This document shows, piece after piece, positions 1 through 41,928 of a stretch of DNA of 41,928 bases. The notes under the pieces are model-generated. The model was not told where the DNA came from. It did not search any database and was given only the letters and a program-made list of their open reading frames with translations. Numbering within the stretch: position 1 is the first letter of the stretch; the number at the start of each line of letters is the position of its first letter. The position numbers were made by a program, and so were the translations under genes. The DNA is from a virus (lineage: Duplodnaviria; Heunggongvirae; Uroviricota; Caudoviricetes), in the IMG/VR virus record IMGVR_UViG_2648501336_000002. The stretch is one strand, 5' to 3'.

Positions 1-819
1 ATGCTTGTTAAATTCAGAATAGATCGAAATACAATTACAAATAACAGCACAATTTTAAACGCTAATGACAATCATTTAATTTACTCAAACCTAAATGACA
101 CAGATATAAACTCAAAAATATTTGACGCTGTAAATGGTGAAATATCAGCAAAGAAACTAGCCGACGAACTATTTCCTGAAAACGAACCACACATTTTTAT
201 ATCTCATAGTAGCAAAGACGTAAATGTAGCAATAAGTCTAGCAAACACTCTTTATGCAAAATATAAGATAACATCTTTCATTGACTCCCAACTTTGGGGA
301 CATATTGACCACGCACTAAAGGAAATGCATAATCGATACTGCAAGATCCCCGGCTCATCTTATTACCACTATGATAAATCTAATAACCTACTATCTCATA
401 TGCACGCCATACTAAGTATGGCTTTAATGAGAGTAATGGATAACGCTGACAGCGTTATATTTATCGAATCCGGCAACTCAATTTACCAATATATGGGAGA
501 TACTACCATTGCTCCCCAAGAAGCAATTGAAAAAACATCTGAAACATTATCTCCATGGATATCCTCTGAGGTGAATTTTGCAAATACCTTAAGATTGAAA
601 GGCCATAAAGATAGAGAACAACCATTAATGGAAAGCACAGATTCATACTCTTTAAACAAGAGTAATATTAAAGCAGACTCCTTACCCAAAATAATACATG
701 AAGTCAACTTAAGTAAATTCATAGAGATAGACAACAAAAAATTCAAAGAGTCTTTATCATTAAATGAAACAAATCCAATAAAAACTTTAGATATGATTTA
801 CCAAATATATGCTCAATAG
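1..819 (+). CDS. TIR-like domain protein (bacterial TIR / ThsB-like); accessory gene, 5' end possibly cut by window edge
   Basis: 272-aa ORF, visibly AT-rich; motif HIFISHSSKD resembles the FISH-type beta-A motif of bacterial TIR domains, with conserved Glu candidates downstream (FIESGN, WISSE). No search run. Confidence 0.45.
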   Translation: MLVKFRIDRNTITNNSTILNANDNHLIYSNLNDTDINSKIFDAVNGEISAKKLADELFPENEPHIFISHSSKDVNVAISLANTLYAKYKITSFIDSQLWGHIDHALKEMHNRYCKIPGSSYYHYDKSNNLLSHMHAILSMALMRVMDNADSVIFIESGNSIYQYMGDTTIAPQEAIEKTSETLSPWISSEVNFANTLRLKGHKDREQPLMESTDSYSLNKSNIKADSLPKIIHEVNLSKFIEIDNKKFKESLSLNETNPIKTLDMIYQIYAQ

Positions 820-847: not shown

Positions 848-879
848 CCGTTGGCACATCATATACAACGTGCCAACGG
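848..879. terminator. 10-bp perfect inverted repeat hairpin after the TIR-like gene (possible bidirectional terminator)
   Basis: CCGTTGGCAC-12 nt-GTGCCAACGG; T-rich flank on the minus strand, weaker on the plus strand. Confidence 0.4.
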
Positions 880-1026
880 AACGAGTCAATTACAATTATT
901 TTATGGCAGGAAAAACTGACGAATCAATATCTGGTTCGGTTGCTGTATCAATACGGTTCAGCAACACCTAATATTTCTTCCATGCCGCCAGCAATGAGGT
1001 CTCCTCTGCCGCCACAATACCCAAAT

Positions 1027-1167
1027 CTACGGCATCCTGAAGCGGTGCAATATGCTCACCCTGATTTTATCTTCAAAAATCCGGTCGCATCCTGCACAGT
1101 TCAACGCATTACGTTGTAGATCGGTATTCTGGTCATTTGTTGATACGCGTACATAGCCAATAAGCAT
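1027..1167 (-). pseudogene. Serine DNA invertase (Gin/Pin/Cin/Hin family) N-terminal remnant, truncated after about 34 conserved codons
   Basis: Minus-strand ATG at 1167 translates to [34 protein letters not shown], a near-exact match to the conserved invertase N-terminus including the catalytic Ser; it then diverges and stops at codon 47 (TAG, 1029..1027). Confidence 0.7.
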
Positions 1168-1193: not shown

Positions 1194-1586
1194 ATGATGC
1201 CATTTGCTCGTTATTTCTGCATTTTCATAAACGTTGGTTTGGGAGAAGCGGCTAAAAGGAATGTAGGGACAGGGGCGAATCAGATACCTGATATGGGTAG
1301 CTTCACGCTTTCTGTTTCAGGTACTGGATATCAAAAATTACCATCAGGTTTTATTCTTCAGTGGGGTTCAATCGGCGCACCAGGCATTGCACAGGATGTG
1401 GTAACCCATTTTCCGATTGCATTTCCAAACCGATGTCTGCGTGTTTTGGTCTCACAAGACTACACACCAGATAGCGGGGCTGTTGGTTATATTGCCTGCG
1501 CAGGTTTTAGTTCCGACCCGGTTAAATTTATATCCAGAGCCGGTACTCCAGGTCTCGGCGCTTCATTTTTAGCGTTAGGCTGTTAA
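1194..1586 (+). CDS. Alternative tail-fibre C-terminal cassette (Sv'-like), promoterless, expressed only after inversion
   Basis: Tail-fibre-tip-like sequence; encodes NVGLGE at the crossover site, matching NLGLGE in the expressed tail-fibre gene. Confidence 0.55.
1222..1247. repeat. hix/gix-like recombination site (right boundary of invertible segment)
   Basis: TTTTCATAAACGTTGGTTTGGGAGAA; 20/26 identical to the reverse complement of the site at 3090..3115, with the AAACnnnGGTTT core typical of Hin/Gin-type crossover sites. Confidence 0.55.
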
Positions 1587-1607
1587 TTTAGCTATATGGA
1601 GTGAAAA

Positions 1608-2048
1608 ATGAATTACATATATTCCGCGACTACAAACTCTTTCTATCCACTGGAAATGAAAGAGGATTACACTCAAGCTGACTCATGGCCAGATGATGCT
1701 GTTGAAGTTGATGAGCAGGTGTATATTGAGTTTTCCGGATTACCGCCGGAAGGAAAAATCCGTATCGCTGGAGAAAATGGTTTTCCTGCATGGTCTGAAA
1801 TTCCACCACCAACACCTGAGGAACAGATTGCTGCAGCCGAACTGGAAAAGCAGCAACTGATTAATCAGGCCAACGATTATATGAACAGTAAACAATGGCC
1901 TGGTAAAGCGGCTATTGGTCGTCTGAAAGGTGAGGAACTGGCGCAATATAATCTGTGGCTGGATTATCTGGACGCACTGGAGCTGGTCGATACTTCCAGT
2001 GCGCCAGATATTGAATGGCCTACGCCTCCGGCAGTTCAGGCCAGATGA
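1608..2048 (+). CDS. Tail fibre assembly protein (alternative copy, U'-like)
   Basis: 146 aa, C-terminal region typical of tail-fibre assembly proteins (DYLDALELVDTSSAPDIEWPTPP); convergent with and overlapping the minus-strand copy. Confidence 0.65.
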   Translation: MNYIYSATTNSFYPLEMKEDYTQADSWPDDAVEVDEQVYIEFSGLPPEGKIRIAGENGFPAWSEIPPPTPEEQIAAAELEKQQLINQANDYMNSKQWPGKAAIGRLKGEELAQYNLWLDYLDALELVDTSSAPDIEWPTPPAVQAR

Positions 2049-2622
2049 CATCCGGCGCGGTGCTGGTATCTGTTGCCGTCACCGCGTCAATGTAATCCAG
2101 CACAGCGTTAAGCCGGGTTGTTTCTGCCTGCGTCAGTTTCCGCCCGGCCTGTAATTTCAGCTGAATCAGACTAATGGAAGCCATTGCTGCATCAATCAGT
2201 GACTGGCGCTGTGCTTCTGCCGCTTCTACTGCGGCACCGTGTTGTGCCTCAGAATCTGTCACCCATTTCTCACCATCCCATTTATCATATGTCGTTAACG
2301 GGACGATAGTGGTTGTATTTTCAGGGTAATCACCCGGAGCTGTGATTTCTTTTGCTTCTCCTGTTTCGGTGCTATAGATAATTTCACCGCGATGGTCTGG
2401 CATATATTCCCATGAGTTTAAATCTACTGAACGGCAGATTGCATAACCAGCCTTATATGTGCCAGGAGCATCTAAACAGGAATATGCCGGGATACCGACA
2501 CCAACGGCAAGATATTCATTTGAAGTGGAAATATATTCCCGTGTTTCACCATCATAGTTATAGACGGTAATATTCCCCGCCTTCGTGGCAATAAGTTCGC
2601 TATTTAATACGGCTTTATCCAT
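2020..2622 (-). CDS. Tail fibre assembly protein (U-like, currently expressed orientation)
   Basis: 200 aa immediately downstream of the tail-fibre gene; C-terminus LDYIDAVTATDTSTAPDVIWPELP parallels the plus-strand copy. Confidence 0.7.
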   Translation of the reverse strand: MDKAVLNSELIATKAGNITVYNYDGETREYISTSNEYLAVGVGIPAYSCLDAPGTYKAGYAICRSVDLNSWEYMPDHRGEIIYSTETGEAKEITAPGDYPENTTTIVPLTTYDKWDGEKWVTDSEAQHGAAVEAAEAQRQSLIDAAMASISLIQLKLQAGRKLTQAETTRLNAVLDYIDAVTATDTSTAPDVIWPELPEA

Positions 2623-3458
2623 TATGCAGCTCTCACGATATAGTTAAATGCAATATTTCGTGGACGGGTTTCGCTCCCACCTGTGTTACCAATACTCCCT
2701 CGTGTATGTAGCGTTGGTGATGGAATCAGAGTTCCTCCGGCATCGGCAGCATCAAGCCCCCGGCCTTGCGTATATGCTCTTCTGAAGATTGTCGCCAGTT
2801 CCCATTCCTCTTTTGAATCATACCCATCGTTGGCAACAACAATATGGCGGTGTTTTTCCAGCATCCCAGTCTGAATGCTCAATAAAGCACGTCCTGCATC
2901 AATACCACGCCCGTCATCCCATCCACGAATAAACTCACCACGGAGATCAGGTAGTTTCCCTGATGGATATGCTGTAGCAAGATGGGGATATTTCACCTTA
3001 TCAAAGGCAGCGCCGTTGCATTTCAGCCAGCCCGTTGGCGGGGTTGCGGAGGGCCACGGAACAGGCACACCAACAGGTAATGCAGAGCCTTCTCCCAAAC
3101 CAAGGTTTTCGAGAGCCGTTTTCACCGTGCCATCCGATTTGATATCACCAAACGGATTCTTGCGGCTCAGGTATTCAACAGCAAACCCCGATCCCAGCAA
3201 TTCAACAAAACCGGGCAGATCACCATTATCAAGCACATCCCGTTGCGTTTTATCACTTACAAACTGGGCCAGAGCTGCAGCAATAAAGCTGGCCTGCCGA
3301 ATAACCTTATTGACTTGCGCACTGGAGGCTTTCCCTGCTGTAAATCCGGATAAAAGCGCGGGCAACGCTTCCCATTCCTCCTGCGATATAACATTGGCAT
3401 TTCGATCCGTTGCAAACGCTTTAAAGTCATTTTTCGCCATCAGAGTAATACTCCCCAT
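2622..3458 (-). CDS. Tail fibre protein (constant N-terminal part plus variable C-terminus)
   Basis: 278 aa following the baseplate genes; contains the crossover site inside the codons for ALENLGLGE. Confidence 0.65.
3090..3115. repeat. hix/gix-like recombination site (left boundary, inside tail-fibre gene)
   Basis: TTCTCCCAAACCAAGGTTTTCGAGAG, an imperfect dyad with the AAACC-nn-GGTTT core. Confidence 0.55.
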
Positions 3459-4120
3459 GCTCCTACATCAAAACCACTGATGAATTCGTTATCCATATCA
3501 AAACCAAAAAATTTTGAGCCTTCCGATGGGGTTTCCACCGAAGGTGTTTCAATGCCACCCGCCCATACCCCGGCGGCTTTTACTGTGAGATACCCCTGTT
3601 TAATTGCCGCAATTAACTCACGCGATACATCTGAAATATCAGTATCAGGAAAGACCCAGACCGATATCGTCATGTCCTGGTTATCGACTATCTGCATTCG
3701 CAGCCCGGATCCTGCTGTTGCAGCGTCAAGAATTGCCGGAAGCGAATCATTCCGTCCATCCCAGTTATTAATCGCAATCTTCGCTTTAAGAATGACACGA
3801 TAAGTTTCATCGCTGAGGTACATGTATCCGGAATCAGGATCGTATGGTCCCTGCCATACCCCCTGATCATATCCAAGCCCGTCGGTATCCCAGCTGAAAT
3901 AGACACCTGAGATAGGCTGGCTGACAACACGGCTACGTCCGATCCACAATCCCAGAATGTCAAGTTGCACACCAACCGCAGAGTCAATATCAAATGCAGT
4001 AATCAGCCCTCTGGTGGCAGCCGCAACATCAATAAGCGGCCGGGTCATCAGATCAACATGCGCAAGAAATTTAGGTTTGGTGGCGTGGTAGTTCGTGATT
4101 AGTTCGGTGTATTTGCTCAT
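3440..4120 (-). CDS. Baseplate/tail protein (Mu gp48-like)
   Basis: 226 aa between the baseplate J-like gene and the tail fibre; synteny with Mu-type baseplate modules. Confidence 0.45.
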
Positions 4121-5316
4121 GACTCCACCGTTATAACGATATTTTCCGGGGTACAGGACGCAGATTCGTTGTATCTGATATCAATGTTTGATGACGACAA
4201 AACCCCCGGGGATTTCCCAATCGTCAGTTCCTGAATATCGTAATAGCGTGCATTCCCGCCACTCACCACGCCAAGATTCGCCGGTGAGTAAATGCGACTT
4301 AAAAGGACCGAATCACCAATCGTCAGACTATTGATATAGTCGGAAATAGCCTGCTGGATCTGCTGCCCTATCTGTGAGGTATAACCCGTAAAAACTTTTA
4401 ATTTAATCAGGGCATAAACAGGCACATCACTGGAACGCGAGAATTTGATTACATGGGGATTGCCGTATTTATCCGGAACCGTAACGGATGTTGTACCGTG
4501 AGTGGCTGTCCCCTGGCCTTTATTCCCTCTGATAGCCTGAGCAATATCCGTTACATCACCGCCATCCACAATTACAGCAACAGAGTGTGGCGGTAACCCG
4601 TTACCGTCCTCCGAACCAGTATCGTTTTCATAGAGTTTGTGGCGGGTTACACCGGTAACATTAGAAACAGCACCATCCAGTGCTTCAAATGGGGTTATTG
4701 ATGGCAACGCAACACTTTGCGACTGGCGGATACGTAACTCAGCGTCAGTTTCTGCCGGAGTGCCCACAGTAGCCGCAGCAGGATTAGTTACCGAAACCCA
4801 GCCACGGGTTGGCGTATTAATTTCAGTGATAGTTCCAGCCAGCGCCGCCACTGCACCACTGACGGAACATGTTGCGGTCACCATCACTGTACCATCCACG
4901 CCGACCACCACTGAAGCAGGCAAACGCCATATCACATTATTACTGTCTTTCACGCTGCCATTAATGATGGTTGTTCCGGCAGTTCCTGTAAGAAGCAAAT
5001 CAACCGTAGAATTCGTCGCGCCTTTACGTGAAATACCATTTATTTTCACGTTACTGGTCAGTGCGGCTCCATAGCCGGTTGCTGGTGAAAAACAGTTGTA
5101 GACAGTTATCGCCATATTATTGGCATCATGAATCGCCAGCGCCATCAGAGCCACCATCTGGCCGTCTTTGCTGTCCGGTTCGAGGTAGGCATCACTGCCA
5201 TAAATCTGCTGAAAATAGCTAATCAGGGTGCTGAGTATCGTCTGATAATCAGGCGCACTGATCCCCTCTGCGGTTACCTTTGCAGATAAACCGAGAGAAT
5301 CAAGGTTCAGAGCCAT
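4117..5316 (-). CDS. Baseplate J-like protein (Mu gp47-like)
   Basis: 399 aa; size and position in a gp45-gp46-gp47-gp48 order. Confidence 0.6.
   Translation of the reverse strand: MALNLDSLGLSAKVTAEGISAPDYQTILSTLISYFQQIYGSDAYLEPDSKDGQMVALMALAIHDANNMAITVYNCFSPATGYGAALTSNVKINGISRKGATNSTVDLLLTGTAGTTIINGSVKDSNNVIWRLPASVVVGVDGTVMVTATCSVSGAVAALAGTITEINTPTRGWVSVTNPAAATVGTPAETDAELRIRQSQSVALPSITPFEALDGAVSNVTGVTRHKLYENDTGSEDGNGLPPHSVAVIVDGGDVTDIAQAIRGNKGQGTATHGTTSVTVPDKYGNPHVIKFSRSSDVPVYALIKLKVFTGYTSQIGQQIQQAISDYINSLTIGDSVLLSRIYSPANLGVVSGGNARYYDIQELTIGKSPGVLSSSNIDIRYNESASCTPENIVITVES

Positions 5317-41658: not shown

Positions 41659-41928
<270 letters not shown>

Follow-up and report, generated by a model that had tools for sequence, protein, structure and literature searches.

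The window, by which we mean the whole stretch of 41,928 nucleotides that was analysed (IMG/VR virus record IMGVR_UViG_2648501336_000002), opens at its very edge with the start codon of a gene for a TIR-domain protein, which is followed on the opposite strand by the fragment of a tfa pseudogene and the remnant of a serine invertase gene (Table 1). The initial annotation had described an AT-rich reading frame of 272 codons at this position, and its GC content indeed amounts to 29-37%, compared to 45-55% for the adjoining tail genes.

Table 1. Coordinates of the features at the thsB end of the window, with the evidence on which each is placed.
Feature	Position	Strand	Description	Evidence
thsB	1..819	+	Intact TIR-domain gene, ATG to TAG, 272 aa, assigned to a type V Thoeris operon	
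Regions of ThsB			TIR core, residues ~60-200; N-terminal extension, residues 1-60; C-terminal extension, residues 230-272	
FISHSSKD motif	196..219	+	Codons 66-73; beta-A (first strand) of the TIR core	Alignment, AF2 model, profile match
SPWISSE motif	550..570	+	Codons 184-190; alpha-C W-x3-E motif with candidate catalytic Glu190	Alignment, AF2 model
Hairpin	848..879	.	10-bp stem in the spacer between thsB and tfa'; terminator-like on the minus strand	z = -4.4
tfa pseudogene fragment	896..1057	-	C-terminal 53 codons, internal stop	RefSeq annotation of the identical locus, translation
Pin/Gin-type serine invertase remnant	1063..1167	-	N-terminal 35 codons only	Pfam Resolvase (E = 1.1e-6), annotation, alignment

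The comparison of the encoded protein with the PADLOC profiles yielded a match to the ThsB1 model PDLC00430 (E = 7.7e-43) that pairs residues 36-269 of the protein with positions 38-262 of the profile and spans 225 of its 269 positions, and a second ThsB profile of the same collection, PDLC00435, matches with E = 3.9e-26. Judged by these profile matches, the gene product is a TIR-domain protein of the Thoeris ThsB kind, as had been proposed initially. The Pfam profile TIR_2 covers residues 65-97 only (E = 0.02, 15.8 bits) and stays under the 28-bit cut-off, a match to PF13676 is precomputed for several relatives of ThsB, and a search of NCBIfam returned nothing relevant. Searches of the PDB sequences with phmmer and with a profile gave weak matches only (E 0.01-0.4) to TIR and SEFIR domains, with one unrelated prefoldin chain among them, and all of these align at the beta-A/alpha-A stretch of the profile. 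Along the FISHSSKD stretch, this profile matches AbTIR and other bacterial TIR structures. Since the gene begins with the first letter of the window, it had been named as a possible objection that the reading frame might be the 3' portion of a longer, unrelated gene. We rejected this candidate, since thsB is preceded by a separate gene and its homologues are likewise of full length: 43 relatives of ThsB were found in the databases, the close ones of which are 262-287 aa long and can be aligned from residue 1, hence the reading frame is complete.

The AF2 model of ThsB (pLDDT 77, pTM 0.76) shows the flavodoxin-like TIR fold with its beta-A/alpha-A/beta-B core, which disposes of the further objection that a TIR fold might be missing. 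Residues 65-68 form the first strand of the TIR core in this model, so that the FISHSSKD motif lies at beta-A, where the initial annotation had placed it. The structures listed for the ThsB fold are the TIR domain of IL-1RAcP (7.8), MyD88 (7.6), SARM1 (7.4), ThsB 6lhy (6.5), SpbK (6.3), BcThsB (6.1) and EcThsB2 (5.5); a Foldseek search of the model against the PDB returned nothing significant. When ThsB, whose cluster comprises 50 member sequences, was aligned with 28 relatives, the residues F66-I67-S68-H69-S70, F93/D95/W99, S160 and T182/S184/W186/E190 proved to be invariant. In the model, a strand formed by residues 180-182 is followed by a helix of residues 185-196, which is opened by the SPWISSE motif and holds W186 and E190. 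The same motif is found as SPWIYHE or SPWIFHE in the validated type V and type IX ThsB sequences. The position and spacing of W-x3-E are those of the catalytic glutamate site of enzymatic plant and bacterial TIR domains. From what is known of these domains, we infer that Glu190 is the candidate catalytic glutamate that the initial annotation had presumed to exist.

A partner gene had been expected upstream of position 1, i.e. outside the window. Positions 1-1060 of the window are present at 99.9% nucleotide identity in the complete E. coli genomes KOr019, P4 and FP4, and in these window-identical genomes a reading frame of 152 codons on the same strand stops 4 nt before the ATG of thsB. Its product matches the PADLOC candidate PDC-M50A (E = 3.7e-26) over 127 of 134 profile positions, and all four PDC-M50A models match it; a literature search found no paper describing PDC-M50. 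The AF2 model of this protein (pLDDT 80) consists of long helices at residues 14-57, 62-98 and 132-151, which contain three hydrophobic stretches of membrane length, and its invariant residues include K18, R31, K40, D79, E86 and R90. On the basis of the model, the partner is predicted to be a ThsF-like three-helix membrane protein, and we refer to its gene as thsF. Pfam assigned no family at threshold to the 152-aa protein or to its 17 close and 30 distant relatives. The profile PF10028 (DUF2270) in particular matches neither the E. coli partner nor its close relatives, and 10 of the 30 distant relatives show sub-threshold matches of 11-17 bits (the best one 17.2 against a cut-off of 25), which are confined to profile positions 24-63, i.e. 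to TM1-TM2. A Pfam label is likewise absent from all of the best 120 of the 3,947 relatives of the partner.

We scanned the genomic neighbourhood of TIR relatives, taking one genome per species and keeping 80 loci, in which the partner was searched for with a profile of the 152-aa protein. These loci span Bacteroidota, Bacillota, Pseudomonadota, Chlorobiota, Spirochaetota, Verrucomicrobiota and others. In 52 of the 80 loci, a homologue of the partner is encoded on the same strand within 300 bp of the TIR gene, with a median gap of 10 nt, upstream of it in 17 cases and downstream in 35, and 8 further loci carry the homologue within 1.6 kb. The partner family is also present at loci whose TIR protein shares about 50% identity with the ThsB validated in B. 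thuringiensis, and across differing prophage backgrounds the pair is found intact but diverged (78% identity at the amino acid level for ThsB and 83% for ThsF). Hence, thsF-thsB is a conserved two-gene module. The best match to the validated B. thuringiensis locus in the plasmid collection was only 53% identical. At one locus of Erwinia tracheiphila (L004), the thsF homologue (1722-2180) and the thsB homologue (3713-4483) are about 1.5 kb apart and the match to ThsB begins only at residue 44, which suggests that the operon has been disrupted by an insertion.

A 38-bp direct repeat that represents the att core is located inside yfhL at positions 41678-41715 of the window, and its second copy is found beside yfhH, about 2.03 kb before position 1 (L001 9935-9972). 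The element is a prophage of E. coli with yfhL as its integration site, and thsF-thsB is AT-rich cargo at its extreme end, inside the att sites. Since the second att copy is found upstream, the prophage reaches beyond the window, the edge of which splits the operon between thsF and thsB. The roughly 2 kb beyond this edge hold thsF, a 215-aa ORF with transmembrane and coiled-coil character and a 113-aa phage ORF; the low-GC island at the prophage end (30-36% GC) measures about 2.5 kb. Both ThsF and ThsB have PHROG families. The AT-rich 215-aa ORF (L001 10511-11158, about 0.85-1.5 kb upstream of position 1 and thus outside the window) shares the low-GC island with the Thoeris pair and encodes an N-terminal hydrophobic helix followed by a coiled-coil-like remainder. 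Searches of Pfam, PADLOC and PHROG found no family for it, and it may act in defence or exclusion separately from the pair. Between about 3460 and 41600, the prophage is of the contractile-tail type with genes for a DNA polymerase, a VapE-type primase and a DEAD-box helicase (annotation of the identical KOr019 locus: L001 15440-25060, L086), and it also contains a lysis cassette, a terminase, head and tail modules and a tyrosine integrase gene next to yfhL. By this annotation, the prophage appears complete.

The prophage end past the tail-fibre module is a hotspot for cargo. At this position, strain QML220601 carries genes for NACHT, FRG and AAA-ATPase+HNH proteins (L084 1-5532) and strain A34 genes for a Mn-catalase and a ferritin-like protein (L085 1-3856). 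In lambdoid prophages at icd (L002/L003 4600-6589), genes annotated as 'AAA family ATPase' and 'retron system putative HNH endonuclease' adjoin thsF-thsB.

Since the partner is a predicted three-helix membrane protein of 152 aa, the pair corresponds to type V Thoeris as catalogued in a recent survey of TIR signalling systems, in which Thoeris types V-XI were defined and type V was described as a TIR protein (ThsB) with a three-TM "DUF2270" effector, ThsF (Yirmiya et al., bioRxiv 10.64898/2025.12.03.692087). In Table S1 of this survey, an entry identical in sequence to the window protein (IMG 2649505888) is assigned to TIR cluster 2734579397 under the label "DUF2270 - Type V"; the effector labels of this table are noisy by the authors' own warning. 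The same cluster also contains the type V ThsB of B. thuringiensis DAR 81934 and the type IX ThsB of B. cereus VD021 (bioRxiv 10.64898/2025.12.03.692087). According to that work, the ThsB of DAR 81934 makes 3'cADPR upon infection, added 3'cADPR is specifically toxic for cells bearing the DAR 81934 type V system with its ThsF, and defence by this system is lowered by the sponge Tad1, while a second validated type V system showed no response to 3'cADPR (bioRxiv 10.64898/2025.12.03.692087). Of the type V systems tested there, the only one from a gammaproteobacterium (V. cholerae) did not protect E. coli, and the set of 30 tested operons did not include the E. coli system of the window (bioRxiv 10.64898/2025.12.03.692087).

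When compared to the DAR 81934 system, the locus shares the two-gene operon, a TIR protein of cluster 2734579397 with both terminal extensions, the FISHSH...SPWI.HE motifs and an adjacent three-helix membrane protein of about 135-150 aa. It differs from it in several respects: ThsB is merely 30% identical to the validated B. thuringiensis protein (BLASTP, E = 2.5e-29), the ThsB of the enterobacterial clade has an insertion of about 10 residues ahead of the catalytic helix, the window operon begins with the effector gene whereas 35 of 52 relatives have it after the TIR gene, the system resides in the prophage of a gammaproteobacterium, and the partner stays below the threshold of Pfam PF10028. 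The type IX ThsB of B. cereus VD021 belongs to the same cluster, is 31% identical to the window protein (BLASTP, E = 2e-31) and makes 3'cADPR, but its partner is the TIR-SLOG protein ThsJ instead of a small membrane protein. Type I (ThsB with the SIR2-SLOG protein ThsA, B. cereus MSX-D12) employs an NADase as effector in contrast to the membrane protein found here, and the window TIR is from another clade with additional N- and C-terminal segments. Type II (ThsB with TM-Macro) and type VII (TIR with SLATT) resemble the locus in that a TIR signal is passed to a membrane-spanning effector; their signals are His-ADPR and canonical cADPR, respectively, and Pfam detects neither a Macro nor a SLATT domain in the window partner. 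The partner is also shared with PADLOC PDC-M50 by its match to PDC-M50A, with PDC-M50 itself being a bioinformatic candidate only.

Taking the gene architecture together, we consider it likely that thsF and thsB form a type V Thoeris system of two genes, in which ThsB senses the infection and generates the signal. Infection by another phage would activate ThsB, the TIR site of which, with Glu190, would convert NAD+ into a cyclic ADP-ribose isomer. The signal would then be bound by oligomeric ThsF in the inner membrane, and ThsF would permeabilise the membrane so that the infection is aborted. What triggers the system, which signal is made, and that ThsF oligomerises and kills at the membrane are all read across in this scheme from the validated B. 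thuringiensis homologue of the same TIR cluster. For the signal itself, a cADPR isomer with 3'cADPR as the likeliest candidate, we would put the chances at about even: since the second type V system does not respond to 3'cADPR and the identity to the B. thuringiensis protein is this low, the signal of the window system is uncertain.

The same divergence leads to another reading, which we regard as unlikely, namely that the enterobacterial prophage clade is not a plain copy of the Bacillus type V. It could use another signal, it could possess a distinct family of three-TM effectors formed by about 3,900 unannotated relatives, or it could act as a superinfection-exclusion module, which the resident prophage itself would have to evade when induced. 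Such a reading could draw on the distance of ThsB from the validated protein, on the clade's own insertion by the catalytic helix and on a partner that falls outside Pfam DUF2270.

The roles of the two proteins might also be reversed, with the TIR protein acting as a toxic, NAD+-depleting NADase effector as in CBASS, Pycsar or SPARTA and the membrane protein serving as its sensor, anchor or regulator. The catalytic glutamate motif would fit plain NAD+ hydrolysis equally, and the authors of the survey caution in general that this may apply to TIR configurations which have not been verified (bioRxiv 10.64898/2025.12.03.692087). Against it stands that ThsB clusters with TIR proteins shown to produce 3'cADPR as a signal, and this cluster membership renders a reversal of roles improbable. 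Furthermore, 3'cADPR alone is toxic to cells bearing the validated type V system, which puts the membrane protein downstream, and the invariant residues K18, R31, K40 and R90 of the partner are predicted to reside in non-membrane helices, consistent with ligand binding.

We find it quite improbable that the pair represents a moron in decay or without a role in defence, such as a remnant that travels with the tfa fragment and has no present function. The cassette does sit among pseudogenes (the tfa fragment and the truncated pin), and the related V. cholerae type V system is inactive in E. coli; however, both reading frames are intact and full length with every family-invariant residue in place, and different prophages have retained the two ORFs in intact though diverged form, with 50 members in the ThsB cluster. 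Finally, the initial annotation had looked to a ThsA-like, SLOG, Macro or SIR2 partner upstream, as in a classical type I/II Thoeris or a CBASS-like system, and the top HMM match is indeed to a PADLOC model named ThsB1, but we give this hardly any credence, because in the window-identical genomes, for which the refutation holds, the 2 kb from position 1 to the att site contain only the 152-aa, 215-aa and 113-aa ORFs, none of which has such a domain, a PADLOC ThsA match or a significant Pfam match (the sole Pfam match has E = 6.8), and past the att site core genes (yfhH, yfhb, tadA) follow.

With type V Thoeris as the preferred reading, the prophage would carry an anti-phage signalling system whose operon is cut in two by the window edge, and the annotation of this prophage should be extended by about 2 kb to the att site. 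Since type V Thoeris has yet to be demonstrated as functional for any proteobacterium, the locus would be a handy native E. coli example of this type. The literature already covers the window protein and its class as well as the mechanism proposed, so that the locus offers nothing new in kind beyond the catalogued system.

The initial annotation had reported the invertase remnant at 1027..1167, directly beside the TIR gene, and had suggested that the insertion which brought the TIR gene deleted most of the invertase gene. A truncated invertase gene is indeed present, but it is confined to 1063..1167, as positions 1027-1062 are a read-through of its frame into non-invertase sequence, and it is separated from thsB by the hairpin and the tfa fragment. 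We aligned four loci around the pin/tfa junction, including those of QML220601, A34 and a lambdoid icd-site prophage. Codon 35 of pin is joined to the 3' fragment of tfa at about 1058-1066 of the window, and homology with the intact pinE of QML220601 starts at about 1067. E. coli A34, with its Mn-catalase and ferritin-like cargo and no Thoeris, is 100% identical to the window over 1000-1057, has one mismatch in 1058-1066 and is 96% identical over 1067-1167, i.e. it possesses the same junction.

The lambdoid icd-site prophages that carry thsF-thsB are 85-86% identical to the window at 780-895, which comprises the gene end and the hairpin, and the homology then fades within the tfa fragment to 68% at 896-923 and 71% at 924-999, with none beyond. 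In these prophages, the thsF-thsB-hairpin-'tfa module occurs without a pin gene at that place. The hairpin is common to them and absent from A34, and it belongs to the Thoeris cargo module, the boundary of which can be placed at about 896-923, some 140-160 bp from the pin/tfa junction. Because the junction is present without Thoeris and the module boundary is distinct from it, the proposed link between the insertion and the truncated invertase is not supported, and we rejected the insertion of Thoeris as the cause of the truncation. Judged from these alignments, the tfa 3' fragment rather looks like a shared recombination arm for the exchange of cargo at the prophage end.

Next to the remnant, inverted repeats at 1229-1248 and 3089-3108 delimit an invertible tail-fibre segment (1229-3108), which is flipped relative to the window in the otherwise 99.9% identical KOr019, P4 and FP4. 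As the invertase in cis has been reduced to 35 codons, this flip must be due either to a Pin/Gin/Cin-type enzyme acting in trans or to an inversion older than the truncation.
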